A stretch of DNA of 64,000 nucleotides from a virus. Of the stretch, positions 13,356 to 64,000 are shown in pieces. The notes under the pieces were generated by a model. It was not told where the DNA came from. It ran no database searches and saw only the letters and a list, made by a program, of their open reading frames with translations. A program made the position numbers and the translations under genes. The stretch is taken from IMG/VR virus record IMGVR_UViG_3300021375_000013, positions 35,765 through 99,764 of that record. The stretch is one strand, 5' to 3'. Numbering within the stretch: the stretch's first letter is position 1; the number at the start of each line of letters is the position of its first letter.

Positions 13356-13646
13356 ATGGCAAGTAGATACGAAAATAACGAAAGTAAAAAATTAAATGAT
13401 GGTAGGACTGTATATCGTTCTAAGATATATCCTAAAATACCATTAAGAGATGATGATGTTTATGTAGCATCTGAAACTGGTGATAGATTAGATACCTTAG
13501 CATATCAGTACTATGAAGATTCATCACTTTGGTGGATTATAGCAGCTGCAAATAATATACATAATGCTCCATTTGGTTTGAAAGATGGTACAATTTTAAG
13601 AATACCACAAAACTATATTGAAATATTAGTAAACTTTAGTGAATAA
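13356..13646 (+). CDS. LysM-containing baseplate wedge protein (gp53-like)
   Basis: GDRLDTLAYQYYEDSSLWWIIAAAN...G..LRIP. Confidence 0.8.
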   Translation: MASRYENNESKKLNDGRTVYRSKIYPKIPLRDDDVYVASETGDRLDTLAYQYYEDSSLWWIIAAANNIHNAPFGLKDGTILRIPQNYIEILVNFSE

Positions 13647-13651
13647 CAGTT

Positions 13652-15958
13652 ATGGGAACATTTCCAAAATTTTCAAATATTGCGGGATATGCTACAAAAA
13701 CCTTAGAAAGTAGAAAACGTAGTGTATATAACGTATCTAAGTTAAATGCTTGGGTAAGAGTAACATCTGCCGTTTCTGGTAATAAGGGGGATGGATTAAC
13801 AATAGTATCTAATCCAAATTTTAAATTATTTGGAGCTGCTGGTGTTTCTTCTATTTATGGAATTAATAAACAAAGTGGTACTATTGGTGAAACTTGGGGA
13901 GGTTCCCCAATAAATCCATCGGAGGGGCAAGGTTATAAACCTTCTCCAATTATTGAATCTATTGAAATAGATGAGGGAGCTGGTAATTTAAGTAGAAAAG
14001 CTAATTTTACAATTAAATGTTTTTCTAAAGACCAAATGGAATTAATAACTGAATATTTCCAAGAACCAGGATTTACTGTATTTTTAGAATGGGGATGGAA
14101 TACTCCAGAATCTATGAAAGGTTTGGTAAAAAAATTAAATGCAACTGAAATAGCTAATTTTCAAAATTTTAAAAATCTTACAAGTAGAAGAGAAGCATCT
14201 AAAGGACAATATGATAACTATTTAGGATTTATAACTGGTGGTGGAATAGCAACCGAAGGTGAAAATTGGACTGTTGAAGTAAAATGTACAGGTTTTACGG
14301 AATTACCAGCTTATTTGGTAAATGGTGATAACGCTGGTGATGATTCTGATAAAAGTGCTAAAAAAGAACCTGATTATAAAAATTTAAGTGATGAAACTGA
14401 TTTAAATGTAAAACGATGGATGTTTGCGTTCAATGCACTACCATCTAATAGAAAAACTGCAGAAATTAAAGCATTGGGTTCTAAAAATGATGATTCCCTT
14501 AGAAAGATACCAATGGCACAGGCAGTTAATTATGTAAACTTTGATGAAACTATTGCTGATGCATTAAACAACAAAGCAGATGGAACGGCTATTGGTAGGC
14601 TCTTTGGTTGGGGTGGTGCAAAGGAAAAAGGTAATGATGGAAAAGAACGTATAGATATACCAGGAGGTACTAAGATAGTTGGTGGTGAAAAGTTTATAAG
14701 ATTTGGTACTCTTATGAAGATAATGAACCAAATGATTATAAAGGGTTTAAAAATTGGTAAGAAAGTGGTTTCTATGGAAATTCATTCAGAGCATACCATA
14801 TGTTCAGCGTATCCAAATATATTTAGTACTGATAAAAGTAAGTTGTTAATACCAAATGTAAACACACCAAAATTTAGTTTTCTTGATGCTAAAAACAATG
14901 AACAAGCATTAGAAGTTATACCATCTGATTTTGAAGATTGTTCAATAGAATATGGTGGTGTAAAAATACAATTTCCTTTTGAAAATCCTATTATTGGTGG
15001 TTCTGTTCAAGTTGGTGGTAATTTTTATGATTTACAATATAAAGATGGAACCACACCATCTAGTGAATGTATAGATAAAGATAAAGGAGAATGGGGATTT
15101 TTAGATGACTTGTATGTAAACTTCGATTTCGCATCGGGTATTATGGGAACAAGTAACTTTACAGTAAAGGATGCTTTATATCAAATCTTAAATGGAATGT
15201 CATCAGCTGTGAATGATTTATGGAATTTTCAGATAATGGAAACAACTTTGGAAAATGATAGAGGAAACCTAAAAAAAGGAGACCAAATAATTACCATACA
15301 AGAAACTAACTTTACATATAAACCAAAAGTAAATCCATATACATTTAATCTAATAGGTAGTGATTCTATTTTTAAAGATGCATCTTTAAATTTAGATATG
15401 AGTGCTGCTAAGATGAATCAAGTTATTGGTACAAGATTAGGAAAAAAGATTAATGGTGAAACTCAACCACTTTTTGGTAGGTTAGATTCGGGTAAGATTA
15501 CCGATTTAGTTTTAAAGGAAATCGAATCTAAAAAAGAATCACCACCACCACCTAAAGGTGGAGAAGAAACCGATGAAGAACTAAAAGAAAAGAATTATGC
15601 TAATTTTTTGGGTAAGATAGGTACATATCCAAAAGTACAATTTGAAAAAAAGGATATAAAAGATAAGTTTGTTGTACAAGAAAAAACTTATGCATCTGTT
15701 TATGATGATAAACAATTACTAAAAATGGCTAAATCTGAAGCAGATAGGAAATCAAATGTATCTATTTTGTTACCAATTAATTTTACATTTACTGTATATG
15801 GTGTTAGTGGTATTAAGAGAGGAGATAGGTTTAGAGTAAAGGGTATTCCTGCAAAATACGAAACGCAAGGATTTTTCCAAGTTTTAGGTGTAAAACATAC
15901 TATTCAAGGAATGGAATGGACTACTGAAGTTGAAGGTGGATTTAGAAACAATACATAA
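13652..15958 (+). CDS. Baseplate hub-like structural protein
   Basis: PGFTVFLEWGW, YDNYLGFI, C-terminal T.YGVSGIK.GD.F.V..IP.KY...FFQV..VKHTI...W.T; position in the baseplate module. Confidence 0.6.
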   Translation: MGTFPKFSNIAGYATKTLESRKRSVYNVSKLNAWVRVTSAVSGNKGDGLTIVSNPNFKLFGAAGVSSIYGINKQSGTIGETWGGSPINPSEGQGYKPSPIIESIEIDEGAGNLSRKANFTIKCFSKDQMELITEYFQEPGFTVFLEWGWNTPESMKGLVKKLNATEIANFQNFKNLTSRREASKGQYDNYLGFITGGGIATEGENWTVEVKCTGFTELPAYLVNGDNAGDDSDKSAKKEPDYKNLSDETDLNVKRWMFAFNALPSNRKTAEIKALGSKNDDSLRKIPMAQAVNYVNFDETIADALNNKADGTAIGRLFGWGGAKEKGNDGKERIDIPGGTKIVGGEKFIRFGTLMKIMNQMIIKGLKIGKKVVSMEIHSEHTICSAYPNIFSTDKSKLLIPNVNTPKFSFLDAKNNEQALEVIPSDFEDCSIEYGGVKIQFPFENPIIGGSVQVGGNFYDLQYKDGTTPSSECIDKDKGEWGFLDDLYVNFDFASGIMGTSNFTVKDALYQILNGMSSAVNDLWNFQIMETTLENDRGNLKKGDQIITIQETNFTYKPKVNPYTFNLIGSDSIFKDASLNLDMSAAKMNQVIGTRLGKKINGETQPLFGRLDSGKITDLVLKEIESKKESPPPPKGGEETDEELKEKNYANFLGKIGTYPKVQFEKKDIKDKFVVQEKTYASVYDDKQLLKMAKSEADRKSNVSILLPINFTFTVYGVSGIKRGDRFRVKGIPAKYETQGFFQVLGVKHTIQGMEWTTEVEGGFRNNT

Positions 15959-22043: not shown

Positions 22044-22346
22044 ATGGGTAATTGGTTTGTAAAATCTTTTGATAACTACTTTAAATTTATAGATGATGAT
22101 TCATCTATGATAGTATTAACATCAGGTAGTATAAATGAAAGTGGTAGTGTAGATACTGTAATTTCTTACAATTTTTTATCTGAGAGTGTACCTAAATATG
22201 AAAGTATTAGAGATTCTTTTATATCATCATCATTTTTTACATCATCATATACAGGTTCATCAGAACCAGTACCACAAATTATTAGTGAATCCCTTTGGGA
22301 AGAAAAGAAAACAGAATTAAAAAGTTATATAATAAATAGTTTATAA
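22044..22346 (+). CDS. Small Ser-rich hypothetical protein (paralog of 21793-22041)
   Basis: Same scaffold as the previous ORF plus SGS/SSS/TSS/TGS motifs. Confidence 0.6.
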   Translation: MGNWFVKSFDNYFKFIDDDSSMIVLTSGSINESGSVDTVISYNFLSESVPKYESIRDSFISSSFFTSSYTGSSEPVPQIISESLWEEKKTELKSYIINSL

Positions 22347-46510: not shown

Positions 46511-46561
46511 CGGAAAATAAATATCTATATACTTATATATATAAATACAAAACTATATACT

Positions 46562-46759
46562 ATGAGTGTAGAAACTAAACTAACAACTGTAAAGATTATA
46601 AAAGGTGTTTATTCAAATTTTAAAAGAGTTTCTTTTGAATCAGATGTAACACTTCAAAAATTAGTAAACAGAACAGTTGAACGATATGTAAGCGATGATG
46701 AATTTAGAAAAGAGATGAACGAATATCTCAATTTACAAATATCAGGTTCGCAATTTTAA
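46562..46759 (+). CDS. Small ribbon-helix-helix-like DNA-binding protein
   Basis: KLTTVKI...Y..FK......TLQKLVNR....Y; beta strand plus two helices. Confidence 0.5.
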   Translation: MSVETKLTTVKIIKGVYSNFKRVSFESDVTLQKLVNRTVERYVSDDEFRKEMNEYLNLQISGSQF

Positions 46760-46781: not shown

Positions 46782-48167
46782 ATGACAAAAAAGAAAAAGA
46801 TTCTTCTCCTTTCAGATGATATGAGGATGAGTAGTGGTATAGCTACTATGAGTAAAGCATTGGTAATGGGTACTCTTAAAGAGTATGATTGGTTCCAAGT
46901 AGGTGCAGCAATTAAACATCCAGACAAAGGTAAAGTTTTAGATTTATCTGCAGATATGCAGAAAAGAACTGGTGTAGAAGATGCATCGGTTAAAATCTTA
47001 CCTTGGAATGGTTATGGAAATGCAGATTTGTTAAGACAAATTATGAATTCCGAAAAACCTGATGCTATCCTTCACTTTACTGACCCACGTTATTGGACTT
47101 GGTTATATGAGATGGAACATGAAGTAAGAGAAAATTGTCCAATTCTTTATTATACTATTTGGGATGATTTACCAGACCCACTATACAATAGAAATTACTA
47201 CGAAAGTTGTGATTGGTTGGGTGCTATTTCAAGACAAACTTATGGAATTGTAAGTAGGTTAACTTCTTTAACCGATAAACCAACTTGGAAACCTCATTCA
47301 GATTGGCAAGTATCTTATGTACCACATGGTATAAACCAAAATGATTTTAAGCCAATTGATGTACCTTCTGATTTTAGAAATAAAATATTAGCAGGTAATG
47401 ATTACGATTTTATCTTCTTTTGGTCAAATAGAAACATTAGAAGAAAACAACCATCTGATGTTATTATGGCATTTAAGGAATTTTGTGATAAAATTGGTAA
47501 AGATAAAGCATCAAAAGCTGTGTTACTAATGCACACAACACCAAAAGACCAAAATGGTACTGATTTACCAACAGTTGCTGAAACACTTGCACCTGATTGT
47601 AATGTAGTATTTTCAACTGCTAAGTTAAATACTGAACAATTGAATTACCTTTATAATATGGCTGATTGTACAGTTAATATTGCTGGTAATGAGGGGTTTG
47701 GATTAACAACTGCAGAATCGGTAATGAGTGGTACACCAATAATTGTAAATGTAACTGGTGGATTGCAAGACCAATGTGGATTTAAAGTAGATGGTAAATA
47801 TCTAACTGCTGATGATTACATTAAAATCGGTTCACTTCACAAATGGAGAGATTGGGAAGATAAAGTAACTTGGGGAGAATGGGCTACACCAATTTGGAGT
47901 AGAGCACAATCTTTGACAGGTTCAGTTCCAACTCCTTATATTTGGGATGATAAAATCGATGTAATTGAGTTATCAGAAAAAATGGAGAAAGTTTATAATA
48001 CTCCAAAAGAAGAATTAACAAAGAATGGTTTAGAAGGTAGAAGAGCATTTATTGAGGATATGGGATTATCTGCAGAAAATATGTGTCAACAACTAAAAAA
48101 TGGTGTTGAATCTACTTTAAAAAATTGGAAACCAAGAAAAAGATACGAACTATTTAAAATTGCTTAA
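46782..48167 (+). CDS. GT-B (GT4-like) glycosyltransferase
   Basis: LLSDD.R..SG, HFTDP, YVPHG, NRNIRRK, NEGFGL...ES...GTPII...TGGL. Confidence 0.88.
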   Translation: MTKKKKILLLSDDMRMSSGIATMSKALVMGTLKEYDWFQVGAAIKHPDKGKVLDLSADMQKRTGVEDASVKILPWNGYGNADLLRQIMNSEKPDAILHFTDPRYWTWLYEMEHEVRENCPILYYTIWDDLPDPLYNRNYYESCDWLGAISRQTYGIVSRLTSLTDKPTWKPHSDWQVSYVPHGINQNDFKPIDVPSDFRNKILAGNDYDFIFFWSNRNIRRKQPSDVIMAFKEFCDKIGKDKASKAVLLMHTTPKDQNGTDLPTVAETLAPDCNVVFSTAKLNTEQLNYLYNMADCTVNIAGNEGFGLTTAESVMSGTPIIVNVTGGLQDQCGFKVDGKYLTADDYIKIGSLHKWRDWEDKVTWGEWATPIWSRAQSLTGSVPTPYIWDDKIDVIELSEKMEKVYNTPKEELTKNGLEGRRAFIEDMGLSAENMCQQLKNGVESTLKNWKPRKRYELFKIA

Positions 48168-48495: not shown

Positions 48496-49797
48496 ATGAA
48501 CAAACCTTTATTAGTATATCAAGCTCCTGTATTTACTCGAAGTGGTTATGGTGACCATGCTAGAGATATTCTCAGAAGTTTATTTGAATTGGATAGGTAT
48601 GATATTAAGATTGTACCAACACGTTGGGGAAATACTCCTCAAAATCAAGCTGACCCAACAACTGAATTTGGGCAGAAAATGTTATCTAACGTTGCAACTA
48701 GAGTTGATAGAAAACCAGATATTTTTATTCAAATGTCTGTTGCTAATGAGTTTGAACCAAAGGGTAATTTTAATATTGGTATTACTGCTGGTGTAGAAAC
48801 TACTGTATTACCAAAAGAATTTTTGGATGGTGGTAATAAGATGGATTTAATTATAGTACCATCTCAGTTTACTAAATCACTATTTGATAAAACACAATTC
48901 CAAGAACAAGATAAACAAACTAAACAAATAATTAAAACTTTCAAAAGTGAAAAACCTTGTGAAGTTTTATTTGAAGGGGTTAATAAAGAGTTATATGAAA
49001 ATCCACAATTTACTGAAGTAGATGTATTAGATGGAATTGAAAGTGATTTTAATTTCTTATTTGTTGGACATTGGTTAAAAGGTGGAATCGGACAAGATAG
49101 AAAAGATGTAGGAATGGTTATTAAAACATTCTCTACTGTTTTCAAATATCTACCTAAAGATAAAAGACCAGGTCTTATACTAAAAACATCATCAGCTGGA
49201 TTTTCTGTAATGGATAGAGAAAACACAAGACAAAAAATAGAACAAGCCATAAAAGGTTTAGAAGATGTACCACCAATTTATTTATTACATGGTGATTTAA
49301 AAGAATCTGAAATGGTTGAACTTTATAATCATTCTAAAGTAAAAGCAATGATTTCATTCACAAAAGGTGAGGGGTATGGTAGACCTTTAGCAGAATTCGC
49401 TACAACTGGTAAACCAATCATTGTTTCTAAGTGGAGTGGGCATGTAGATTTTTTACCTGAAGATAATACTGTTTTCTTATCGGGTCAATTGACAGATGTG
49501 GATAAATCAGCAGCAGATAAATTCTTATTAAAAGAATCCAAATGGTTTACAGTAAATTATTCTGAAGCCGCTAATAAGATTTATAAGGTATTCAATGAAT
49601 ATGATTCTTACCTAAAAAAATCACAAGGTTTAAGAGCAAATATTTTGAGTAATTTTACAATGGAAAAAATGACTGAACAATTGGGTAAACTTATGGATAA
49701 GTATGTTGGAAATATTCCAGTTCAAAAACCATTTCAACTACCTAAATTGAAAAAACAAGAACCTAAACTTAAATTACCAAAACTAAATAAGTTATAA
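48496..49797 (+). CDS. GT-B (GT4-like) glycosyltransferase
   Basis: SGYG.H.R, TAGVET, IVPS.F, FLFVG.W...RK, GEGYGRPL.E...GKPII..WSG. Confidence 0.88.
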   Translation: MNKPLLVYQAPVFTRSGYGDHARDILRSLFELDRYDIKIVPTRWGNTPQNQADPTTEFGQKMLSNVATRVDRKPDIFIQMSVANEFEPKGNFNIGITAGVETTVLPKEFLDGGNKMDLIIVPSQFTKSLFDKTQFQEQDKQTKQIIKTFKSEKPCEVLFEGVNKELYENPQFTEVDVLDGIESDFNFLFVGHWLKGGIGQDRKDVGMVIKTFSTVFKYLPKDKRPGLILKTSSAGFSVMDRENTRQKIEQAIKGLEDVPPIYLLHGDLKESEMVELYNHSKVKAMISFTKGEGYGRPLAEFATTGKPIIVSKWSGHVDFLPEDNTVFLSGQLTDVDKSAADKFLLKESKWFTVNYSEAANKIYKVFNEYDSYLKKSQGLRANILSNFTMEKMTEQLGKLMDKYVGNIPVQKPFQLPKLKKQEPKLKLPKLNKL

Positions 49798-50261
49798 TGA
49801 ATTACGCATCACAATATAGAACATTTATTGATATAGGAAGTCGAATTACAAAAGGAAGTATTCAACCTTACGGATTATATAAACTATCTACATACAAATA
49901 TGTTGATGAAGGAAGAAAAACTTTAAGAGGAAGTGAAGAAACTTTAATATTCGTTACAGGTATTTATGAAAAAAAAGTACAAGCTCTTAAATTATCCAAT
50001 ATCCCACCAGTAAAGTTTTTAAGATGGTTTAAACAAATTGCTAACAACACATATAAAGATAGTGGATTAGACCAAATTCCATTATATTCTTTTGAAAAAC
50101 CAATGGATGTTGGTGGTAATAGAATTTATGATATATACATAAAAAGAAATAAAGAATTTGTAGCAAAAGGAGCAGCTTTTAGAACTTATAAGTTAGATGG
50201 TATCCAATATGCAACTGAAGTATTTTTAAAGAAAAACGTTTTAGAACAATATTATGGTTAA
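49797..50261 (+). CDS. Hypothetical protein, weakly like T4 DNA end-protector proteins
   Basis: G.Y..Y.Y...LIFV.G....AL.L..IPP...AFRTY pattern. Confidence 0.35.
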   Translation: MNYASQYRTFIDIGSRITKGSIQPYGLYKLSTYKYVDEGRKTLRGSEETLIFVTGIYEKKVQALKLSNIPPVKFLRWFKQIANNTYKDSGLDQIPLYSFEKPMDVGGNRIYDIYIKRNKEFVAKGAAFRTYKLDGIQYATEVFLKKNVLEQYYG

Positions 50262-50883
50262 TGTTACATATGCAATTACAGTTTGTAATGAGATAAATGA
50301 GATTACAAAATTAGTAAACTTTCTTCATCCAAGAATCCAATCAGAAGATGAGATTTTGATTCAATATGATGAAGGTGGTGTAACTGATGATGTGAGAGGA
50401 TATTTACGAATTATAAATGATTTACATGATAATGTAAATGTAATTGGATTCCCACTTAATAAAGATTTTGCATCTTATAAAAATAACTTAAAGAATCATG
50501 CAAAGGGTATCTTCATTTTCCAAATAGATGCTGATGAATTACCAAATGAATATTTGATTACAAATATGCATGATTTATTAGAAGCAAATTTGGATATTGA
50601 TTTATTTTTTGTACCAAGAGTAAACACAGTTAAAGGATTGACACCAGAACACATCCAAAAATGGAGATGGAATGTAAATGAAAAAGGATGGGTGAATTGG
50701 CCTGATGTTCAGACACGAATTTATAGAAGAACTTCTGAAATAGAATGGGAAGGTAAGGTACATGAAAGAATTAAAGGTTACAACACAATGACTTATTTAC
50801 CATTAGAGGAAGATTTTGCATTGTATCACCCAAAAGATATAGATAGACAAGAAAAACAAAATGCTTTATACGAAACAATATAA
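50254..50883 (+). CDS. GT2 glycosyltransferase
   Basis: V.NE, DF...KN, IFQIDADE, VPR.N, WPD.Q.R, W.G.VHE. Confidence 0.85.
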   Translation: MVNVTYAITVCNEINEITKLVNFLHPRIQSEDEILIQYDEGGVTDDVRGYLRIINDLHDNVNVIGFPLNKDFASYKNNLKNHAKGIFIFQIDADELPNEYLITNMHDLLEANLDIDLFFVPRVNTVKGLTPEHIQKWRWNVNEKGWVNWPDVQTRIYRRTSEIEWEGKVHERIKGYNTMTYLPLEEDFALYHPKDIDRQEKQNALYETI

Positions 50884-51461
50884 TGGGACAACACAATTTT
50901 TCCGAAGAAGTTATAGTAGAACTCTTCAAAAGAGAACCAATAGATGTTTGGATAAATTCCTTTGGAGGGTGTAGGTCAAACTATATCAGAGATTGTATCA
51001 AAGATAAGTACACCACTTACAACTTTGCTTATGAAATGAAAGCATGTCATTACATCAGACCTTTGGATGTACAAGTTGGTAGTGGTATTTTTTGTTATAC
51101 TGAAGATGTTGGTATCGCAATATCATCTCAAATTAAAAGAGGAATGTATCATAACTTTCAGAAATTAATGAGAGGTGATAATGAAGTTCCATTTAGTGTT
51201 GATATTTGGTTAGATAATATTGATAAACAAATTGATAATTGGACTAAACCATCTAACTTCCCAATTGTAATTATCAATACTGATGTTGTTGGTGATTATA
51301 AAGATAAATTTGAAGAAATTTACGAAGTAGAAATGCTGTCATTTAAAAAAAGAAGTACTTCAGAGTATATTGATGAAGTAAAACCATACTCAGATAAAAT
51401 AGAAAAAATAAATACTAAATTAAGAAACTTACCAAACTTTAGTGTAAATGAAAAAATTTAA
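50883..51461 (+). CDS. Possible sulfotransferase-like/P-loop protein
   Basis: WINSFGGCRSNY resembles a degenerate PAPS-binding loop; located in the glycan island. Confidence 0.35.
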   Translation: MGQHNFSEEVIVELFKREPIDVWINSFGGCRSNYIRDCIKDKYTTYNFAYEMKACHYIRPLDVQVGSGIFCYTEDVGIAISSQIKRGMYHNFQKLMRGDNEVPFSVDIWLDNIDKQIDNWTKPSNFPIVIINTDVVGDYKDKFEEIYEVEMLSFKKRSTSEYIDEVKPYSDKIEKINTKLRNLPNFSVNEKI

Positions 51462-51966
51462 CAAAATATTTGTATGTGGTTTATCAAGAACTGGTAGTAA
51501 AAGTTTAGGTGATTATTTTAAGCTATTAGATTTAAAAGTTCAACATAATGGAGGACAAGTTCTTAATCCTTCATTATTTTCTGAAATTGATGTTTTATTG
51601 GATGATAAACAAACCCAATTCTTATATGAAGTTTTAAATCAGAAATTTCCAAATTCACTTTTTGTTTATACAAATAGAAATGATGAAAGTTGGGTAAATA
51701 AAATAATCGATTGGAAGTCAGATTATAGCTACATCTATCACCAATCATTTGGGATAGGTGAAGGAACAACCCCAGATACAAAAGAAATGTTAACTTCTTT
51801 TAAACAACAACATTTTATTAGATTTAAATCATTTGCAACTGAATTACCAAATGATAGAGTTTTATATTTGGATTTAGAAGATAATGAAAAGGGTGAAAAA
51901 GTTTGTGAATTTTTAAATGTAGAATATAATCCAAAATTAGAATATCCAAACATAAAATATAGATAA
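51448..51966 (+). CDS. Sulfotransferase-family protein
   Basis: KIFVCGLSRTGSKSL 5'-PSB loop, FPNS.F..T.R...SW, LDL......CEFL. Confidence 0.7.
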   Translation: MKKFNKIFVCGLSRTGSKSLGDYFKLLDLKVQHNGGQVLNPSLFSEIDVLLDDKQTQFLYEVLNQKFPNSLFVYTNRNDESWVNKIIDWKSDYSYIYHQSFGIGEGTTPDTKEMLTSFKQQHFIRFKSFATELPNDRVLYLDLEDNEKGEKVCEFLNVEYNPKLEYPNIKYR

Positions 51967-52739
51967 TGGAAAATATTATATTATTTGTTAAAAGTTATAG
52001 AGGTGATTTACAAAGATGTATGGAATTAGCTAAAAGTATTGAAAAATACAATAAAGATAACATACCATTTTATATATCAGTTCCAACTGGAGATATTGAA
52101 TTATTTAAACAAAATATACCTCAATGTAAGAACATAATAGATGATAATATCATAACTCAAAATTCGGATGGTTGGATAGGTCAACAAATGGTAAAATCAT
52201 TGGTATATAAATTGAATTTGTGTAAATTCTATGTTTGTTTAGATTCAGATGTTTATTTCTTCAAAGATTTTTATATTAAGGATTTCTTATATACTAAGGA
52301 TATTCCTTATATGATAATGCATGAGAGAGATGATTTTTATGAATTCGTAGATAGATTTCCAGAATTGATGACTTATGATGTAAGAGCTGGACACGAAGGT
52401 GAATATAAATCTATTATGGCTCACTTTGGTAGAGAAGGTAAAATATACCATTATGGAATATCTCCTTATATTTGGGATACTAAAGTTTGGGAGTGGTTAG
52501 ATACTGAGTGGGGATTGGATACTTTATTTGCAAAACATGCAAATGAATTAAAGTGGTATGGTGAAGGGGCATTAGCAATGGGTACACCAATGATGCCAAC
52601 ATCACCTTTATTTAAAGAATTTCACTTTCCTGGTCAATATCAATTATATAAACAATTAGGTTGGAAAGAAGAACACTTCCATAAACAATATATGGGTATT
52701 GTAATGCAGAGTAATTGGGGAGCACCTTTAAAATATTAA
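51966..52739 (+). CDS. GT-A-like protein (DUF6492-like)
   Basis: KSY..DL.R...L..SI, GW..QQ.VK, LDSD..F. Confidence 0.6.
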   Translation: MENIILFVKSYRGDLQRCMELAKSIEKYNKDNIPFYISVPTGDIELFKQNIPQCKNIIDDNIITQNSDGWIGQQMVKSLVYKLNLCKFYVCLDSDVYFFKDFYIKDFLYTKDIPYMIMHERDDFYEFVDRFPELMTYDVRAGHEGEYKSIMAHFGREGKIYHYGISPYIWDTKVWEWLDTEWGLDTLFAKHANELKWYGEGALAMGTPMMPTSPLFKEFHFPGQYQLYKQLGWKEEHFHKQYMGIVMQSNWGAPLKY

Positions 52740-52741
52740 GA

Positions 52742-53578
52742 ATGATAACATTTTGTATTTCAACATATAATAATTTAGAATATCTAAAGATAGCAGTAGA
52801 TAGTGTTCGTAAGAATTCTTTCTATAAAGAAGCACCATTTATCATACATGCAGAAAATTGTACTGATGGAACAAATGAGTGGTTAAAAGAAAATTCTGAA
52901 AAATATAACTTAGAATACTATTTGGATAAAAATGATAATCCAAAGGGAATCGGTGGTGGTATGAACTTTTGTGCTGATAGAGTAGAAACTGATTACATTA
53001 TGTTTTTACATTCAGATTTTTATGTAACTCCTAATTGGGATAAAGCTCTGATGGATACACACAACAAATATCCAAATGAAAAATTATGGGTAAATTCACA
53101 TAGAGTAGAACCTCAAATGTTTCCTAACTCACAAAGTAGACCAGGTACAGTTGTAGTTGCAAAAGAAACTTTTGGAGCATACCATAATGATTTTAAACCA
53201 ATGTTGTTTGATAAATACGCTGAGATATTCACTTCAGAAAATGATTTTGAGATTCCAAAAGGTGAAGGTGTAAGTGGATTGATTAAAAAAGAACATTGGG
53301 ATGCGATTGGTGGGAATGACCCACTATTTGCTCCGGCATCTTATGATGATATGGATTTATTCCTAAGAATGTTACAAAATGGATTTAGATTCATTTTACC
53401 AACAACTTCATTAGTTTGGCACTTTGGAGCTAGAGGTTCACATAGATTAGAAGAAAACGATGGTAGAACATCTGAAAGACAAATAAAAGCAGAACAATCC
53501 AATATTCAAAAATGGGTATCAAAGTGGGGTTCACCTCCAACCTTTGATGAATATGGAATGATAAATGGTGTACGATGA
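52742..53578 (+). CDS. GT2 glycosyltransferase (start corrected to ATG 52742)
   Basis: I.TYNNL.YL, C.DGT.EWL, FLHSD, IGG.D..F.P...DD.DL..R, HF. Confidence 0.88.
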   Translation: MITFCISTYNNLEYLKIAVDSVRKNSFYKEAPFIIHAENCTDGTNEWLKENSEKYNLEYYLDKNDNPKGIGGGMNFCADRVETDYIMFLHSDFYVTPNWDKALMDTHNKYPNEKLWVNSHRVEPQMFPNSQSRPGTVVVAKETFGAYHNDFKPMLFDKYAEIFTSENDFEIPKGEGVSGLIKKEHWDAIGGNDPLFAPASYDDMDLFLRMLQNGFRFILPTTSLVWHFGARGSHRLEENDGRTSERQIKAEQSNIQKWVSKWGSPPTFDEYGMINGVR

Positions 53579-54369
53579 AAGTATTCGAATACAACAATGG
53601 AAATGAACAATTTCCACATAGAGCAAAAAATTGGGGAGATATCGTATCCTATCCATTAGTTAAAACAATCTCACAAAGTGAAAAAGTTGAACTAACTAAC
53701 GATAGAGTAAATGGTAAACTTATTGTTGTAGGTTCAGTATTACAGCATTTAAACCCAACGGATTTAGTATGGGGTGGTGGTTGTATTGACCAAAACCATA
53801 TATCAGCCATACCTAATAAGGTATTCGCTGTGAGAGGACCTCTTACAAGACATGAGTTATTATCAAAAGGTATTGAATGTCCTCCTATATATGGAGACCC
53901 TGCTTTATTGATGCCGTACATTACGGATTATAAAAGAAAGGAACCAAACTACAAATATGGATTGATTCCACATTATGCTGATGAATATGAAATTGAGGTT
54001 AAAAATCTAAAAAATCAAGGTGTAAAGATTATTGATATTTGTGGTGGGTTAGAAAAATTTATGGAGGATATTATGGATGTTGAGTTTATTTTATCTTCAT
54101 CGTTACATGGATTAATTGCAGCTGATGCTTGGGGTATTCCAAACGCTAGAGTTATTATTAAAGGAACTCTTTATGGTGGACATTTTAAGTTTATCGATTA
54201 TTGTTTATCGGTAAATAGAAAAATTGATTATGGATATCAATTAACACCAACAACTTCATTGGAAAATTTGAGTAAAATTAAATACAATGATAAAATCCAA
54301 TTCAACGCTGAACAATTAGTTAATTCAGCACCTTGGAACGATAATGATTATAAACATTTGTTTTATTAA
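53575..54369 (+). CDS. Polysaccharide pyruvyl transferase (ExoV-like)
   Basis: NWGD, VGS.L, VWG.G, AVRGPLT, GDPALL, GLIPHY, SSSLHGLI.ADA.GIP, FKF.DY. Confidence 0.88.
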   Translation: MKVFEYNNGNEQFPHRAKNWGDIVSYPLVKTISQSEKVELTNDRVNGKLIVVGSVLQHLNPTDLVWGGGCIDQNHISAIPNKVFAVRGPLTRHELLSKGIECPPIYGDPALLMPYITDYKRKEPNYKYGLIPHYADEYEIEVKNLKNQGVKIIDICGGLEKFMEDIMDVEFILSSSLHGLIAADAWGIPNARVIIKGTLYGGHFKFIDYCLSVNRKIDYGYQLTPTTSLENLSKIKYNDKIQFNAEQLVNSAPWNDNDYKHLFY

Positions 54370-54388
54370 AAATAATTTAGTATATTTG
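54357..54388 (+). promoter_or_regulatory. Bacteroidota-type promoter inside the glycan island
   Basis: TTTG-N20-TATATTTG; ATG follows 4 nt later. Confidence 0.7.
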
Positions 54389-54392
54389 TAAG

Positions 54393-55154
54393 ATGTATTT
54401 AGAAGTAAATCAAACAATAGAAGAAACTGTAAATCTAATCAAAGATAGAATTAGAACAAACACACCATTAGCAATTTCAAGATATGGTGATGGGGAGATT
54501 TATTTTCTAAATAGAAACTCACCACCAGAACATCAACAAAGAGGTTGTAATGATTGGGGATATAATTATCCAAATGATGTAAATAAATTTTATGATGATG
54601 CTGGTAGAATTCTGATTAATGGTATTCAGAATAGTGATGTTATTGGTATAATGGATAAAAATAATGATATATCTAAATCCATAAATTATAAAGAAGAAAA
54701 GTGGTCAATTAAAAAATCCTTATTAGAGGAAAATGATGTAGATATATCTAATCTGATAATATGTGACCATATGTTACCAAGAAACGAAAAATTTGGAAAA
54801 CCTGAAAATTTTAAAGAAATTCTTCAAGGTAAAAGTTTGAATATAATCAGTCCTAATACAGATATTCTTAAAACAAAAAATTTAAGTAAAATGTTTGATG
54901 CTGAAGTAACATATACTCATCATCCATATAATGTTAATTTAAGAAATAGGGATGAATTTATACAATCATTTGATAACATAAAATCAGATGTTGTTTTAGT
55001 TGGTTGTGGTATTCAAAAAGATTATGTATCTTATTTGAGATATAATCATAATAAAATTGCAATAGATGTTGGTGCTTTATTAGATGCTTGGTCTGGATTA
55101 TTAACAAGACCTTGGTTTGGTAAGGGTGGAAAACAAGAATACTTAGTTTTATGA
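54393..55154 (+). CDS. GT-D fold (DUF1792-like) glycosyltransferase
   Basis: ISRYGDGE, VLVGCG, AIDVG...D. Confidence 0.75.
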   Translation: MYLEVNQTIEETVNLIKDRIRTNTPLAISRYGDGEIYFLNRNSPPEHQQRGCNDWGYNYPNDVNKFYDDAGRILINGIQNSDVIGIMDKNNDISKSINYKEEKWSIKKSLLEENDVDISNLIICDHMLPRNEKFGKPENFKEILQGKSLNIISPNTDILKTKNLSKMFDAEVTYTHHPYNVNLRNRDEFIQSFDNIKSDVVLVGCGIQKDYVSYLRYNHNKIAIDVGALLDAWSGLLTRPWFGKGGKQEYLVL

Positions 55155-56518
55155 AAACAAAATTAGTAATATTTGATTTAGATGGTGTTTTGGTTGAGGC
55201 TAAGAACATCCACTTTGATGCACTTAATACAGCATTAGGTGATGATTATGCAATTAGTTGGAAAGAACACTTATCAACATATGATGGATTAAAAACATTC
55301 CAAAAGTTAGATATGTTAAGTGAGCAAAAAGGATTACCAACTGAAATACATAAACAAATTTGGGAAAGTAAACAAAAGTTGACTTTACAAAAGTTAAAAG
55401 AATTGAAACCAAATCAAAATCTACAACAACTAATGAATGCATTAGTAGATGAGGGATATAAGATATCAGTATGCTCCAACTCAATTAGAAAGACAGTTCT
55501 AACTGTACTTTCAAAGTTGGGATTAATGGAGTATATGGATTACATCATATCAAACGAAGATGTACAAAACTCTAAACCTCATCCAGAGATGTATTGGAGA
55601 GCAATATCAAAGATGGGATGTTTACCTGAAGAAACTTTAATTGTAGAAGATTCACCATATGGGTTACTTGCAGCATCTCGTTCTAAAGCTCATGTGTTAA
55701 GAGTAAAAAATCCAACCGAAGTAACTTATACAAATATATTTAAAAAACTAACTGAAATAGAAATGGGAAAAACAAACGATTTACCAAAATGGGAAGATAA
55801 GAAAATGAATGTACTAATTCCAATGGCTGGAGCTGGTAGTAGATTTCAACAAGCAGGATACACTTTCCCAAAACCATTGATTGATGTAGAAGGAAAACCT
55901 ATGATTCAAGTTGTGGTAGAAAATCTGAATATAGATGCTAACTTTATCTTTGTAGTTCAGAAAGAACATAGAGAACAATATAACTTAGATACATTACTTA
56001 ATCTAATAGCACCTAACTCTAAGGTAGTTGAGGTAGATGGTTTAACTGAAGGAGCTGCTTGTACGGCACTTTTGGCAAAAGAATATATTGATAATGATAA
56101 TCCTTTATTCTTCGCTAACTCAGACCAATTTGTAGAATGGGATTCAACTGAGTTTATGTATAAGATGAATGAAACTGATGCAGATGGTGGGATTGTATCA
56201 TTTAGAGCAACACATCCAAAGTGGAGTTTCGCTAAAGTAAATGATGAAGGATTAGTAACTGAAGTTGCTGAAAAGAATCCAATATCAGATATAGCAACAG
56301 TTGGATATTACTATTGGAAGAATGGTTCTGATTTTGTAAAGTATGCAGAAGAAATGATTGAAAACGATATCAGAGTAAATGGAGAGTTTTATGTTTGTCC
56401 TGTATTTAATCAAGCAATTGAAGATAACAAAGAGATTCGTACCTTTGATATTCCTAAAATGTGGGGATTGGGTACACCTGAAGATTTAAAATACTATTTA
56501 GAAAACTATGGTAAATAA
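55151..56518 (+). CDS. HAD phosphatase fused to a nucleotidyltransferase (NTP-sugar pyrophosphorylase-like) domain
   Basis: FDLDGVL, CSNS, KPHPE, VEDS; LIPMAGAGSRF...PKPLI, T.GAA.T, NSDQ, EK..IS, GEFY, LGTPEDL. Confidence 0.85.
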   Translation: MKTKLVIFDLDGVLVEAKNIHFDALNTALGDDYAISWKEHLSTYDGLKTFQKLDMLSEQKGLPTEIHKQIWESKQKLTLQKLKELKPNQNLQQLMNALVDEGYKISVCSNSIRKTVLTVLSKLGLMEYMDYIISNEDVQNSKPHPEMYWRAISKMGCLPEETLIVEDSPYGLLAASRSKAHVLRVKNPTEVTYTNIFKKLTEIEMGKTNDLPKWEDKKMNVLIPMAGAGSRFQQAGYTFPKPLIDVEGKPMIQVVVENLNIDANFIFVVQKEHREQYNLDTLLNLIAPNSKVVEVDGLTEGAACTALLAKEYIDNDNPLFFANSDQFVEWDSTEFMYKMNETDADGGIVSFRATHPKWSFAKVNDEGLVTEVAEKNPISDIATVGYYYWKNGSDFVKYAEEMIENDIRVNGEFYVCPVFNQAIEDNKEIRTFDIPKMWGLGTPEDLKYYLENYGK

Positions 56519-57668
56519 CGTTACATTAGTTATTCCAACATATAATAACTTAAAACATATTAAAAACGCTTATACATCGATTCGTAAATACTATCCAACG
56601 TTAGAGTTAGTATTATTGGATGATGGTTCCTCAGATGGTACATTTGAGTGGTTAGAATCTATTGAAGAAAAAGATGGGAATGTAGTTTTGTATCAAAGTG
56701 AAGAAAGAGTAGGACATACTATCTTATATGATGTGGGTATTGATATGGCTAAAAATGAAATCATTGGTATTATTCATGCTGATATGATTGTTAGTGAAAA
56801 CTACTTAGAAAATCTACTTAAACATTTGGATAAAGGTAAGGTAGTTTGTGGTACTAGAATAGAACCACCATTACATCCACCAGGTAACGAAAAGATTGTA
56901 CAAAACTTTGGAATGGATTTCGATGATTTGAATATCCCAGCATTTGAAGAGTTTGTTAAAACAGCACAATTAGAAAATAAAGATGTAACTACTAAAGGTA
57001 TGTTTGCACCTTGGATTCTATATAAAGAGGATTTCCAATCTATTGGTGGACATGACCCATTATTCGCACCATTCCCTTATGAGGACAGTGATATCTTTCA
57101 AAGATGGATATTAGCTGGATACGAATTGATTCAAAGTAGAGATTCATTTGTATATCATCTAACTTGTAGAGGACATCGGTGGAATGAACAAGTTCAGAAA
57201 GATGATGATTACTACAAAGTAGCATCCAATAAAGCAGCAAGAAACTATTTGAGAAAATGGGGAATATGGATTGAAAATGATTCTTACCAATATCCAATCA
57301 TAACACCAAAGTATGATATTGAATTCAGAATATTTAATTCAAATTCACAACTACTTAAAGTGTTAGAACCTTGGTGTGGTAGAATCTATGTTGATTTATA
57401 TAAAGATGAGGTTGAAAAATATATTAAAGAAGAACAACCAAACACACTTATAGATTTATCTACTAAAATTAATCAAACAGCTAATTCAGATATTGTAATT
57501 AGAATGGATGGTAATAAATTTACACAAGAGGATTTTAAACTGATTCAACAACTTCCAAAAATTATAAAGGATAGTGGTGAAGTTGGAAAATTTACTTTGG
57601 GTAATTTAGAAATCACAATAAATTCTTTGGAAGAATATCAGAATTCACTAATAAATGTAAATCGATGA
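56508..57668 (+). CDS. GT2 glycosyltransferase
   Basis: VIPTYN, DDGSSDGT, IHADM, IGG.D..F.P..EDSD, YH. Confidence 0.88.
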   Translation: MVNNVTLVIPTYNNLKHIKNAYTSIRKYYPTLELVLLDDGSSDGTFEWLESIEEKDGNVVLYQSEERVGHTILYDVGIDMAKNEIIGIIHADMIVSENYLENLLKHLDKGKVVCGTRIEPPLHPPGNEKIVQNFGMDFDDLNIPAFEEFVKTAQLENKDVTTKGMFAPWILYKEDFQSIGGHDPLFAPFPYEDSDIFQRWILAGYELIQSRDSFVYHLTCRGHRWNEQVQKDDDYYKVASNKAARNYLRKWGIWIENDSYQYPIITPKYDIEFRIFNSNSQLLKVLEPWCGRIYVDLYKDEVEKYIKEEQPNTLIDLSTKINQTANSDIVIRMDGNKFTQEDFKLIQQLPKIIKDSGEVGKFTLGNLEITINSLEEYQNSLINVNR

Positions 57669-58555
57669 GTAAAACTTTAGTTGTAACCCATGTAATGCCA
57701 ATGGAATTGGAAATGTTTGAAAGATTCATTTCTTATTATAAGAATTGTTTCAAATATTTGGATAATCAAGATGATGTAACTATGTATGTTACTTTAAATC
57801 TAAATCCAAAGTTGACTGATTGGGATAAAAGTGAACTAAAACAACAATGGTTTATAAATAAGTTTACTGAAGCTATGATAGGAATACCATCACATCTTCA
57901 GATTATAGTAGATGAATCAGTATGGGGAACAACCCAACAAAAAAGAGATGTATCTTTTTTAGATTACGATTACTTTATATTCGTTGACCCAGATATTTCA
58001 GTACATGAGCAACAACTGAAGTTACAAATAATGGCAGCTGAACAAATATCATCTGAATCAGATTTCTTTGTACTTTCACCAAATATTCCAAGATGGTGGG
58101 ATAATACTTGGGATGTAGTAGTTCATCCAAATAATAGAAATGATGAATTGGGTAAGTTTAGATTAAAACAAACATTTATTGATACATTTACTCAAAATCC
58201 AAATGAAATGAGTATTAGAAGAATTGGTGAGTTTAAATTTGGATGTGGTATGCACACCCTATACTCTAAGAAGTTTTGGGAAACCTTTAGAATACCCGAA
58301 GAGTTTGGAGGATATGGTTCTGAGGATACATTTGGTATGATAGCATCAACTGAATCGGCTAAGTTTGGAATAGATGTAAGACAATATGTTTTAGATGGAT
58401 TGTACATCACCGAAGATAAAGATGAAGTACATAGAGAACCATCATATAAAGATAAAATATCAGTATTTAGAGTGAAAGAAGATGGTAAAGCAAAATCTAT
58501 GGAAATCATGCCTATGGTAATTAGTAGATTAGGAAAATCTCTCTTAAATCAATAA
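57665..58555 (+). CDS. GT-A-like glycosyltransferase
   Basis: FIFVDPD (DxD), FGGYGSEDT (GYG.ED). Confidence 0.65.
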   Translation: MSKTLVVTHVMPMELEMFERFISYYKNCFKYLDNQDDVTMYVTLNLNPKLTDWDKSELKQQWFINKFTEAMIGIPSHLQIIVDESVWGTTQQKRDVSFLDYDYFIFVDPDISVHEQQLKLQIMAAEQISSESDFFVLSPNIPRWWDNTWDVVVHPNNRNDELGKFRLKQTFIDTFTQNPNEMSIRRIGEFKFGCGMHTLYSKKFWETFRIPEEFGGYGSEDTFGMIASTESAKFGIDVRQYVLDGLYITEDKDEVHREPSYKDKISVFRVKEDGKAKSMEIMPMVISRLGKSLLNQ

Positions 58556-61499: not shown

Positions 61500-64000
61500 A
61501 TGGCAGATAATATTAAAATATCAGAATTAGTAGAATTAACATCGGGCTCACTTAGTGATGCTACGATTTTTCCAGTTGTAGATGGTGGTAGTACTAAAAA
61601 AGCTAGTTTATCATCTTTACAGTCATACCTTACTGATGATTTAGCAACTGATGCTGAATTATCTTCACAAATTTCAAATGTTAACTCTACAATTAGTGGA
61701 TTAACAACTGATAATATTACAGAAGGTGATAATCTATACCTTACTGATAGTGGTATAGATGAAAGATTAAATACTAAAAATGTAGTAAGTTCATCTGCAC
61801 AAGTACAAGATTCATTGGGTGGTAGTAATATAGTTTCCTCATCTAACCAAATATCAGCATCAGCTGCAGCATCTGGATTCGGAGCTGGTGGAGGTGGTGG
61901 AACATCTAATTATAATGATTTAACAAACGTACCAACAGGTATAGTTTCTTCATCAGCACAAACGATAGCAAATTTAGGAAGTAGTACAATACTATCTGGT
62001 TCAATAACATCAACTGATATATCTGATTTTAGTGATGCAGTATCATCATCAGCAGCAGCTGCTGGATTTGGTGGTGAAGGTGGCGGAGGTGGTTCTTCTG
62101 ATTATGTATCGAATGTAACATTCTCAGGAACTACTTTAACATTTACAGGAGTAGGTAGTGCATTTGGTAGTGGTGTTGATTTATCTGGAGAAGGTTTAGC
62201 TTCACAATTAGATGTTGATGGTAAATTAGCAGTATCAACATATAATACGGATTCTGCATCTTTCGCATCAAGAATTGGTGGAGGTGGAGGAGGAAGTGTT
62301 CCATCTGGAACTGTTTCTTCATCAGCACAAACAATAGAACATATTAATACTATTAATGTAATATCTTCTTCAGCTCAAGTAGTAGTTCGTAGTGCTGATT
62401 TAACTAACTTCACTACTGATGATATAACTGAAGGTACTATTAACAAATATGGAACCAACGCTAATATATTATCTTATATAAACTCAATTGGAGTTGTATC
62501 TGGTTCTGGTGGTGGTGGATTTGATGTATCTGGTACTAATATTGTATCATCATCTAATCAAATTCAATTACTTGGATTTATTACTAATGGTACATTTGGA
62601 ACAGCAACAGCATCTTTACAAACTCAAATAGATAATATCGATAGTGGTATTAGTGTAAATGATGTAAACGTTTATTTAGCAAAACAAAAATATACACAAG
62701 ATATTGAAGTAACTGGTAGTATCCTACTTAACAATGGTTCATTTAGTGGTAGTGGTGCTCAATTAAGTAACATACCAGCATCAGCAGTTGTAGGACTTAG
62801 TTCTACAAATACACTAACTGATGGTTCTTCATCATTGGCAGTAGTGGAACCGCAAGGTATAACCGCTACAGTAGATTCTGGAAACTTTAGAGTAAACTTA
62901 GATAGTGGAGGTGATTTAATTGTAAGTGGTGGACACTTCTTTGCAGCTAGTGGTTCGGTATTTAGTGGTAGTGGTGCTGGATTAACTGGAATTCCAGGTT
63001 CAGCAATTGATGGTGGAGTTGATGGACAGAAAATAGCATCATCATCCTTTTCAGCATCTATTGAAGATGGAACAGGTAATTTTGTAGTAGGACCTCCTGC
63101 TATATTTGAAAGTACAATATCAGCTTCTGGTGAAATAACGGCACAATCGATTTCAGTTGGTACTTCTGGTACTCCAACAATATATTCATCCAATAACTTA
63201 AACTTATCATCATCTGGTACAGTTGTAGTTACTGATTCAGCACTTAGACTGAATCCATTAACTGATACTCAGACTGGTTCATTAACGATTCAGACTGGTG
63301 ATATGATTTTTAGTAATGATTCTAATGATTTCTATGGATATAGAGTAGTGAATGAAACTGGTAGTTGGTACTCATTAACCGAAGGTACAGTTACATCCGT
63401 AGAATGGAGTATAATAGCTGGTGTACCTGCTGGTTTAGTTTCAGCATCTTCTCAGATAACATCTTTAGGTGGTGGATTAATTTCATCATCAACACAATTA
63501 TTACCTTCTGGAGCAGCAGTTGGTACTGTTTATTTTGAAGATACTTTAGATAATATAAGTGGTTCATCTGATTTCACATATACTGCTGGAACAAAAACAT
63601 TAAATGTTAATAAGGTAGTAGCAAATGAATTAGTTTATAATACTTCTTTAACCGGAGCTGGTAACGATACTGGTTCTTATGGTAGAGTAGAAACGGATGC
63701 ATTGGAAATTAATGGAATATTAGAATTCCCAATAGCAGATGGTACAACAAATCAGGTACTAAAAACTGATGGTAATGGTAATTTAGATTTCGCAGATTTC
63801 GCAGATGTACTTGGAAATGATAATATAACAACGAATGGTACTATAACAATGGGTACAGGTTCCGTAAATACTAATTTAACTGTTGGTGGAACTTTCAATA
63901 TAGGAACTCCTGTTCATTCAACTTTCAATAATCTAACTACAACTGTTGATGCTGCAAATGTAAGTATATTATCATCTGGTTCTTTAATACTTAGTTCAAG
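61500..64000 (+). CDS. Large Ser/Gly-rich virion (fibre-like) protein, 3'-truncated (not in ORF track)
   Basis: Frame open from ATG 61500 to the window end: MADNIKISEL...FPVV.GG.TKK, TTD.ITEG repeats, VSSS(A/N)Q repeats, FSGSGA.L..IP repeats, FP.ADGT.NQVLKTDGNGNL.F. Confidence 0.8.
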   Translation, partial: MADNIKISELVELTSGSLSDATIFPVVDGGSTKKASLSSLQSYLTDDLATDAELSSQISNVNSTISGLTTDNITEGDNLYLTDSGIDERLNTKNVVSSSAQVQDSLGGSNIVSSSNQISASAAASGFGAGGGGGTSNYNDLTNVPTGIVSSSAQTIANLGSSTILSGSITSTDISDFSDAVSSSAAAAGFGGEGGGGGSSDYVSNVTFSGTTLTFTGVGSAFGSGVDLSGEGLASQLDVDGKLAVSTYNTDSASFASRIGGGGGGSVPSGTVSSSAQTIEHINTINVISSSAQVVVRSADLTNFTTDDITEGTINKYGTNANILSYINSIGVVSGSGGGGFDVSGTNIVSSSNQIQLLGFITNGTFGTATASLQTQIDNIDSGISVNDVNVYLAKQKYTQDIEVTGSILLNNGSFSGSGAQLSNIPASAVVGLSSTNTLTDGSSSLAVVEPQGITATVDSGNFRVNLDSGGDLIVSGGHFFAASGSVFSGSGAGLTGIPGSAIDGGVDGQKIASSSFSASIEDGTGNFVVGPPAIFESTISASGEITAQSISVGTSGTPTIYSSNNLNLSSSGTVVVTDSALRLNPLTDTQTGSLTIQTGDMIFSNDSNDFYGYRVVNETGSWYSLTEGTVTSVEWSIIAGVPAGLVSASSQITSLGGGLISSSTQLLPSGAAVGTVYFEDTLDNISGSSDFTYTAGTKTLNVNKVVANELVYNTSLTGAGNDTGSYGRVETDALEINGILEFPIADGTTNQVLKTDGNGNLDFADFADVLGNDNITTNGTITMGTGSVNTNLTVGGTFNIGTPVHSTFNNLTTTVDAANVSILSSGSLILSS

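Follow-up and report, generated by a model that had tools for sequence, protein, structure and literature searches.

The 64-kb window analysed here (64,000 nucleotides, positions 35,765 to 99,764 of IMG/VR record IMGVR_UViG_3300021375_000013) is the end of a 99,764-bp contig of an uncultured aquatic phage, whose completeness is estimated at 53%. Our subject is a short serine motif, [ST][GAS]S, that is concentrated in the outer tail proteins of this phage, together with a glycosyltransferase (GT) island that may encode the enzymes acting on it. All genes of the contig, and all features given below in window coordinates, lie on the + strand, and the GC content is about 31%. The contig starts with three giant fibre proteins of 5407, 3724 and 3156 aa, the last of which terminates at window position 4283. 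These are followed by small open reading frames (ORFs) and then by the sheath, the tube, the hub, a gp25-like protein and other baseplate proteins. Further downstream come an endolysin and a tryptophan-halogenase homolog, the replication module and the 12-kb GT island, and the final gene is a fibre-like ORF that is interrupted by the contig end and whose homologs give a full size of about 884 aa. By similarity of the sheath, the relatives are Microcystis phage Mel-JY01 (48%), the 484-kb uncultured phage LR756508 (44%) and Flavobacterium phage immuto (41%).

An order-specific serine motif in fibres and sheath

The fibre-like last ORF (61500..63998, 833 aa visible) carries 30 copies of [ST][GAS]S against 13.7 expected (z 4.6), and the tail sheath (5092..7392; phrog_23, PF04984) carries 10 against 3.0 (z 4.1). 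Three small proteins also contain the motif: a DUF7936 protein of 130-150 aa (4566..5018; 4 copies against 0.74, with a class-B promoter-like motif, described below, at 4556), an 80-aa ORF upstream of the sheath (4288..4530; 2 against 0.41) and a 100-aa Ser-rich ORF located between the endolysin and the tryptophan-halogenase homolog (22044..22346; 5 against 1.5). An original prediction, made from the letters of the window, had counted 30, 10, 4, 2 and 5 copies in these proteins, and we reproduced those numbers exactly. When residues were shuffled in blocks of 12, the excess remained in the last ORF and the sheath, and the three small proteins became individually weak (z 1.3-2.4).

In the fibres and sheath taken together, [ST][GAS]S occurs 479 times against 202 expected and [ST]GS 154 times against 33.7. 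The flanks of the motif are hydrophobic at positions -2, -1 and +3, and the sharpened form Phi-[ST]-[GAS]-S-Phi, in which Phi is a hydrophobic or aromatic residue, reaches 103 copies against 8.7 expected, an enrichment of about tenfold. When every tripeptide of the surface proteins was scored without prior choice and with the collagen-like tracts masked, SGS (96 against 19), TGS (58 against 14), TAS (42 against 9.5) and SAS (48 against 12.5) proved the most enriched of the abundant ones. The excess in the sheath is order-specific, permuted residue patterns being at expectation. Variants of the motif with Asp or Asn are not enriched, neither in the contig (0.7-1.6-fold) nor across the three phages that have the GT core (0.5-1.6-fold). 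The motif also differs, as had been stated, from the Bacteroidota sequon D-[ST]-[AILVMT], which is not enriched in the surface proteins (50 against 61.7 expected).

An artefact of Ser/Gly-rich composition, collagen-like tracts, tandem domain duplication or post hoc choice of the motif would draw on several genuine features of these proteins. G-[ST]-S-G-S triplets make up a large part of the excess in the two giant proteins with collagen-like sequence; G-[ST]-S tracts of this kind hold most copies of the 3156-aa protein and many of the 3724-aa one. Repeats run through the whole of the giant proteins, each small ORF is weak by itself, and 11 of the 30 copies in the last ORF, which also has four poly-Gly runs, fall in two internal modules: hhS[SGA]S[ANST]Q, with 8 units, and FSGSGA.L..IP.SA, with 2. 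However, the excess persists under local shuffles and with the collagen tracts and last-ORF modules masked (19 against 9.5, p 0.003, for the last ORF without its modules), and it recurs in nearly homology-free proteins of other phages and in sheaths at non-homologous sites, while five control genomes, among them T4, LR756508, S-SKS1 and GXN1, show no excess. Global shuffles, 12-residue local shuffles, permuted patterns, collagen masking and repeat masking together rule out composition as the source, and we regard the artefact explanation as largely refuted and very improbable. The proposed comparison of structural with non-structural proteins against shuffled controls therefore leaves the excess in place. 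About a third of the last-ORF copies do lie within repeat modules. A clustering of motif contexts meant to count independent origins was dropped as uninformative, since control windows cluster equally in the repetitive giant proteins. We conclude that the motif is a real pentapeptide signature, order-specific and hydroxyl-specific, on the outer tail proteins.

Distribution of the motif on the virion

The assertion that the motif saturates the virion proteins was too broad, since only the outer parts of the tail are enriched. The block of inner tail and baseplate genes (7445..15958), which comprises the tube, the hub, a tape-measure-like protein at 9288, the gene at 11541, the gp25-like gene at 13356 and the gene at 13652, has the motif at or below expectation (3 copies against 7.9, with none in the tube) and serves as an internal negative control. 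All other ORFs have 36 copies against 25, the residual excess stemming from small fibre-module ORFs, and the scarcity of the motif in enzymes noted earlier is borne out as an absence of excess there. In the relatives, portal and terminase contain no copies and the capsid proteins are marginal (3 against 1.9 and 5 against 2.0). Even within the fibres the distribution is uneven: the C-terminal 1426 aa of the 3156-aa protein, which is the part in the window (3..4283), has 7 copies against 6.2 and thus no excess, the excess of this protein being in its upstream collagen-like tract. The bearers have unrelated folds, as had been predicted, and include sheath insertion domains, a neck protein, fibres and small ORFs. 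The last ORF had no match in Pfam, PHROG, PDB profiles or a phage tblastn search.

Mapping of the sites on a structural model of the sheath agrees with this picture. The model has high confidence from residue 30 to residue 560 and resembles T4 gp18 and further sheaths of solved structure. All but one of the ten sites fall within residues 90-490, the variable insertion region, and not in the conserved core (p 0.016 by length, 0.064 by share of Ser+Thr), and we take the T4 counterpart of this region as a whole, rather than residue by residue, to form the protruding domains. The sheath of immuto carries motif sites at non-homologous positions. The motif thus marks the exterior of the tail, that is the giant fibres, the last ORF, the protruding domains of the sheath and small fibre-module ORFs, and not the whole virion.

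The same restriction is seen in the complete genomes of immuto and Mel-JY01, in which about a dozen ORFs of the tail-fibre/tail-spike module and the sheath hold the whole excess, and the rest of the proteome is at expectation (75 against 83 in immuto, 125 against 125 in Mel-JY01). The motif-rich fibres of immuto, Mel-JY01 and RM378 have almost no homology to the contig fibres detectable by BLAST, yet their motifs have the same flanks. In T4 the sheath, the long and short fibres and the baseplate show no excess of [ST]GS (7 against 8.7), which rules out a generic property of myovirus fibres and indicates that the excess is lineage-specific.

Several observations on single proteins can be added. 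The 748-aa protein at 9288-11534 has hydrophobic, transmembrane-like segments (residues 577-686), weakly resembles the tape measure protein of immuto and is probably the tape measure. Among the proteins listed earlier as motif-rich virion proteins, the 100-aa one at 22044 does have its five copies but is no more than a candidate for the virion, lying as it does between the endolysin and the tryptophan-halogenase homolog. The latter, a 510-aa protein (22347-23879) with a PHROG 'tryptophan halogenase' match of E 2e-106, is an unusual phage gene and forms a unit with the endolysin; a class-B motif stands upstream of this unit, at 19856. Upstream of the window, a 110-aa fibre-module ORF at contig positions 29897-30226 (window -5867 to -5538) has seven copies of [ST]GS, including the run SGSFTGSFTGSLSGSF, with a class-B motif upstream of it.

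The glycosyltransferase island

The glycan island that had been placed at 46.5-58.5 kb is real. Pfam finds in it two GT4-type, three GT2 and one GT-D-like glycosyltransferases, a sulfotransferase-like protein, a pyruvyl transferase, a DUF6492 protein, a SnoaL-like protein and a fusion of a HAD and a nucleotidyl-transferase domain. At its head stands a 64-aa ORF (46562..46756) that is 82-96% identical across 41 loci of the clade and is at least as conserved as the GTs behind it. The conserved core then consists of GT4 #1 (46782..48167), with orthologs in immuto, Mel-JY01, LR756508 and RM378; GT4 #2 (48496..49797), with orthologs only in Mel-JY01 and the immuto phages among 50,697 phage records; and a small GT2 (50254..50883), with orthologs in immuto and Mel-JY01 and a homolog in RM378. 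The remainder (50883..58555; sulfotransferase-like, DUF6492, GT2, pyruvyl transferase, GT-D-like, HAD plus nucleotidyl-transferase, GT2 and other ORFs) differs in content among relatives. Among 47 uncultured loci it is the downstream genes that vary, while the small ORF, GT4 #1, GT4 #2, w49797 and GT2 are retained as a core.

The three core GTs have syntenic orthologs of 38-47% identity in immuto and Mel-JY01, and they lie directly downstream of the same PD-(D/E)XK nuclease gene in the contig and in each of these phages. They are conserved about as much as the sheath and tube, despite hosts from different phyla, and this synteny between a Flavobacterium and a Microcystis phage argues for a target intrinsic to the phage. 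In RM378 the GT4 #1 and GT2 homologs occur in the same order as in the contig; the product of p014, which lies between them, matches GT4 #2 in size and shows weak collinear similarity only. The RM378 region at 9165-15269 has a GT4, a 425-aa protein and a GT2-like protein in this order, with a ribonucleotide reductase gene inserted between. A further relative, IMGVR_UViG_3300020810_001156 (252,603 bp), whose GT4 #1 is 76% identical, is possibly a near-complete genome of the clade and potentially useful for the capsid module, which is missing from the contig studied here. Upstream of the island, the ORFs at 33366 and 34300 (33366-35106) have no orthologs in immuto, Mel-JY01 or LR756508.

Two targets other than virion proteins can be weighed at this point. 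The island proteins include no transmembrane-like segment and no flippase, polymerase or initiating transferase. An acceptor of the host that is linked to lipid, with host enzymes possibly supplying the membrane steps, fits poorly because the GT core is conserved across host phyla. As for DNA, no gene of the ThyA / dCMP hydroxymethylase family was found in Mel-JY01, which is complete and has the GT core, nor in the 53%-complete contig, by a search that recovered both td and gene 42 in T4; the result for the complete Mel-JY01 genome disfavours hydroxymethyl-pyrimidine DNA as the target of the GTs.

Co-occurrence of the motif and the core glycosyltransferases

The observed/expected ratio (O/E) of [ST]GS, with collagen masked, was compared with the presence of core GT homologs in eight genomes. 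It is 4.05 in the contig, 2.83 in Mel-JY01 and 2.53 in immuto, all three with GT4 #1, GT4 #2 and GT2, and 2.65 in RM378, which has GT4 #1 and GT2. It falls to 1.42 in LR756508, where only GT4 #1 occurs, and to 1.30 in GXN1, 1.22 in S-SKS1 and 0.75 in T4, which have no core GT homologs. Genomes with and without the pair of GT4 #1 and GT2 are completely separated (exact Mann-Whitney U test, p 0.029, phylogeny ignored). In a concatenated tree of eight genes, LR756508 is sister to the positive clade and outside it, and RM378 is among the distant outgroups. A joint loss of motif and GTs inside the clade, considered for LR756508, is unsupported, as the tree of the sheath by itself does not settle the position of this phage and the concatenated tree places it outside. 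The tie between motif and island that had been proposed narrows to the first three GTs, which are conserved with the motif, and does not extend to the sulfotransferase-like, pyruvyl transferase and GT-D-like genes, which are clade-specific.

Collagen-like tracts were considered as the true partner of the GTs. They amount to 1440 aa in the contig and 468 aa in Mel-JY01 and are absent from immuto and LR756508, so that they occur in two of the three genomes of the GT-core clade, and immuto has the motif excess without them. Such tracts may be one class of substrate rather than the sole one. Those of Mel-JY01, one of 447 aa in the ORF at 635 (805 aa) and one of 21 aa in the ORF at 9444, are Pro-poor G-S-S/G-T-S tracts and share their type with those in the giant fibres of the contig.

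Two further observations concern the phages compared. LR756508, a phage otherwise poor in the motif, has a 576-aa ORF at 170106-171836 with 9 copies of [ST][GAS]S against 1.7 expected. The motif-rich proteins of RM378 are unannotated ORFs at 64-76 kb and a 100-aa ORF near the tail tube.

Promoter-like motifs

The intergenic regions contain two classes of promoter-like motifs. The class-B motif, ATA[TC]TTATA, has 12 of its 14 copies in the intergenic 2.3% of the contig, and these stand at the head of the GT island and, at distances of 10-75 nt, before fibre-module, sheath, hub and baseplate genes. One copy (5042..5050) is 50 nt upstream of the sheath, and the motif precedes the sheath at 68 of 68 related loci. 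The copy at the island head (46529..46537) has a counterpart in 41 of 41 loci of the clade, always 247-262 nt upstream of GT4 #1, the background rate being 0.022 per 400 nt, and no further copy occurs from there to the island end. A class-B motif likewise precedes the GT core of immuto. These arrangements suggest that the core is expressed with the virion genes, but as the motif also stands before the gene of the single-stranded-DNA-binding protein, a late timing is something that we infer. The exact 9-mer ATACTTATA by itself is not significant (4 against 2.1 expected), whereas the degenerate form is. The T4-type late promoter TATAAATA was rejected as a candidate, having only seven copies and no association with virion genes.

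The other class has the form -33 TTTG, about 19 nt, -7 TAnnTTTG, and is found upstream of replication genes including the nuclease at 45644. Bacteroidota sigma-A promoters have this form, -33 TTTG and -7 TAnnTTTG. The intergenic matches, at 16309, 23881, 23960, 35124, 41871 and 45594, precede replication-type genes, which supports a Bacteroidota host and a class of early/middle genes distinct from the ATA[TC]TTATA class.

A candidate acceptor site for O-glycosylation

Our results lead us to propose, tentatively and as something short of probable, that the motif is a recognition or acceptor element for cytoplasmic O-glycosylation of the outer tail proteins by the GTs of the island. We infer that these GTs act on proteins and have the motif as their site. 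The soluble conserved core (GT4 #1, GT4 #2 and the small GT2), transcribed from the same type of promoter as the sheath, would act on the motif before or during assembly of the tail, and the clade-specific enzymes encoded downstream (GT2s, the GT-D-like enzyme, pyruvyl- and sulfo-transferases and the sugar-nucleotidyl-transferase) would then extend and decorate the glycan. Applied to a widespread group of aquatic, T4-distant myoviruses (the clade of the contig, immuto, Mel-JY01 and RM378), the proposal, which we hold with similar reserve, is that the tail exterior might be coated with O-linked glycans by means of a conserved, late-expressed GT4-GT4-GT2 core that would recognise the site Phi-[S/T]-[G/A]-S-Phi, with clade-specific enzymes, here including those of pyruvyl and sulfo transfer, diversifying the glycan.

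The idea of an acceptor sequon survives in part. It agrees with all the tests made, on support that is circumstantial throughout, and it has precedents in the stepwise modification of Ser-rich adhesins by soluble GTs (PMC5207161), in the heptosylation of autotransporters by TibC (PMC4358343) and in the glycosylated mycobacteriophage virions cited in PMC12619734. It is favoured by the specificity of the motif, its restriction to the outer tail, its conservation, its co-occurrence with GTs and the promoter motif shared with the sheath, but the motif is not virion-wide and a structural strand-turn-strand element would suit it equally well. The conservation is strongest in the family of the last ORF, where motif Ser/Thr residues have a conservation of 0.90 against 0.66 for other Ser/Thr (p 3e-11), 22 of 32 sites are present in every homolog, and the third position is Ser in 93.7% and Thr in 1% of alignment cells. 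An AlphaFold2 monomer model of this family was unusable (mean pLDDT 37). Replacements by Asp or Asn, considered as a sign of ST/Asx turns, dominate only the rare changes, the hydroxyl being kept in 94.6% of cells, and the substitution spectrum therefore does not discriminate.

Several points weigh against glycosylation of the motif. In the sheath, motif sites are conserved only modestly better than other serines (72-75% against 63-64%), and in the model they are found at hairpin turns, strand ends, loops and helix N-caps, which fits a purely structural element; no single local structure is common to them. That the sites are position-fixed and hydrophobically flanked would be expected of a structural element too, and their density would imply very heavy glycosylation. 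On the side of the enzymes, searches of the core GTs against PDB and NCBIfam gave generic family hits far below curated cut-offs and none specific for protein GTs. Peripheral GTs without transmembrane segments also act on lipid-linked acceptors, so that the solubility of the island proteins is not decisive. Finally, the motif-rich relatives do carry the core GTs, as the prediction had anticipated, but because LR756508 falls outside the positive clade this amounts to only about two independent evolutionary contrasts.

The chief alternative is that the motif is an unmodified structural element, a strand/small-residue-turn/strand or a Ser ladder, inherited in the fibres and outer domains of this lineage, while the GTs target DNA, an intermediate of the host envelope or a small molecule. 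This would account for the hydrophobic flanks at -2, -1 and +3, for the retention of fixed sites among the fibre homologs, and for the recurring modules (hhSSSxQ, FSGSG) that hold some of the copies and are common to an immuto fibre protein. It is also consistent with the predicted placing of the sheath sites at hairpin turns, strand ends and helix caps and with the kinship by descent of the positive phages, which leaves few independent contrasts. A generic turn, however, would take Asp, Asn or Thr, and none of these variants is enriched; the lack of Asp/Asn enrichment weakens the case for a generic tight-turn signature. Enzymes and inner tail proteins also have hairpins yet show no excess, and the excess extends across unrelated folds and is absent from T4 fibres. 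We consider this alternative a serious one, though on the doubtful side of likely.

A different role of the hydroxyl at the surface could be phosphorylation, acylation, sulfation by the sulfotransferase-like enzyme of the island, or the formation of unmodified Ser-rich patches that are hydrating or bind polysaccharides. The hydroxyl specificity, the surface restriction and the presence of the sulfotransferase-like gene within the island all agree with such a role. The sulfotransferase-like gene, however, is outside the conserved core and absent from immuto and Mel-JY01, both of which have the motif excess, and no covariation with the motif was noticed for any kinase or acyltransferase. We therefore judge this possibility unlikely.

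To our knowledge, mycobacteriophages are the only phages whose own enzymes have been shown to glycosylate the virion, and we know of no acceptor sequon for any phage. If our proposal is correct, it would be the first description in phages of protein glycosylation directed by a sequon, glycosylated sites would be predictable from sequence across a large group of environmental phages, and the large, fast-changing GT islands of such phages would be explained. It would also bear on adsorption, on resistance to proteases and grazers and on recognition by host defences. With three relatives in culture (immuto, Mel-JY01 and RM378), the hypothesis is open to direct testing. Even as a purely structural element, the motif would remain useful for recognising which parts of the tail proteins face outward in this lineage.

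Comparison with known systems

A study of marine phage proteomics (PMC12014285) contains no data on phage glycosylation. In mycobacteriophages, virions are O-glycosylated by phage-encoded GTs (Freeman et al. 2023, Cell Host Microbe, as cited in PMC12619734). The likeness to the system proposed here is that phage GTs would decorate the structural proteins of their own phage in the cytoplasm and yield a glycan-coated particle. The contig has the corresponding GT4, GT2 and GT-D-like genes and a promoter-like motif common to the GT core and the sheath, with a presumed timing of expression. The mycobacteriophage glycans are reported to be on C-terminal extensions of capsid and tail-tube subunits, whereas in the contig the tube has no copies of the motif, the capsid proteins of relatives are marginal, and the candidate sites are a short internal motif in fibres and outer domains of the sheath. 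The hosts also differ, being Bacteroidota and Cyanobacteria for the group of the contig and Actinobacteria for the mycobacteriophages.

The serine-rich-repeat proteins (SRRPs) of streptococci, a family of adhesins, are glycosylated stepwise by soluble Gtf1/Gtf2 and then by Gtf3, dGT1 (with a GT-D DUF1792 domain), GalT2 and Gly (PMC5207161). As in our proposal, the serines of a fibrous surface protein receive their glycan directly from soluble GTs while the protein is still in the cytoplasm, and both this system and the island have a tandem GT-B pair, several GT-A enzymes and one GT-D-fold enzyme. In the phages the tandem GT4 pair is conserved in three lineages, and PDB searches revealed nothing that ties it specifically to GtfA/GtfB. 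GT4 #2, as read from the alignment, appears to keep an E-x7-E motif, whereas Gtf2 is regarded as non-catalytic. A GT-D (DUF1792-type) extension enzyme is present in the island (PF22882, E 2e-13; NF040628, E 9e-10, below its curated cut-off) but, unlike in the SRRP pathway, it is clade-only and outside the conserved core. No accessory Sec genes were found in a scan that covered part of the ORFs. The acceptor differs as well, since the SRRPs have long S-x dipeptide repeats and the contig has a discrete pentapeptide in folded domains plus collagen-like tracts.

The heptosyltransferases TibC and AAH modify the autotransporters TibA and AIDA-I (PMC4358343). The likeness lies in the cytoplasmic hyper-glycosylation of many Ser/Thr residues in a repetitive, beta-structured surface protein. 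The element recognised by TibC/AAH has been described as two strands joined by a short loop. Both the enzyme family and the sugar are different, and no hit to GT9 or a heptosyltransferase family was obtained among the island proteins, the rest of the contig having been scanned less than exhaustively.

The general O-glycosylation of Bacteroidota resembles the proposed system in that it is directed by a short sequon, acts on many unrelated proteins and belongs to the likely host phylum. It differs in being periplasmic and in using a lipid-linked glycan, and the relative Mel-JY01 infects a cyanobacterium. Among solved structures the closest relative of GT4 #1 is the chlorovirus protein B736L of NY-2A (PDB 3OY2, E 8e-11), the match covering only a generic C-terminal GT-B domain. 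Chloroviruses glycosylate their capsid protein with virus-encoded enzymes.

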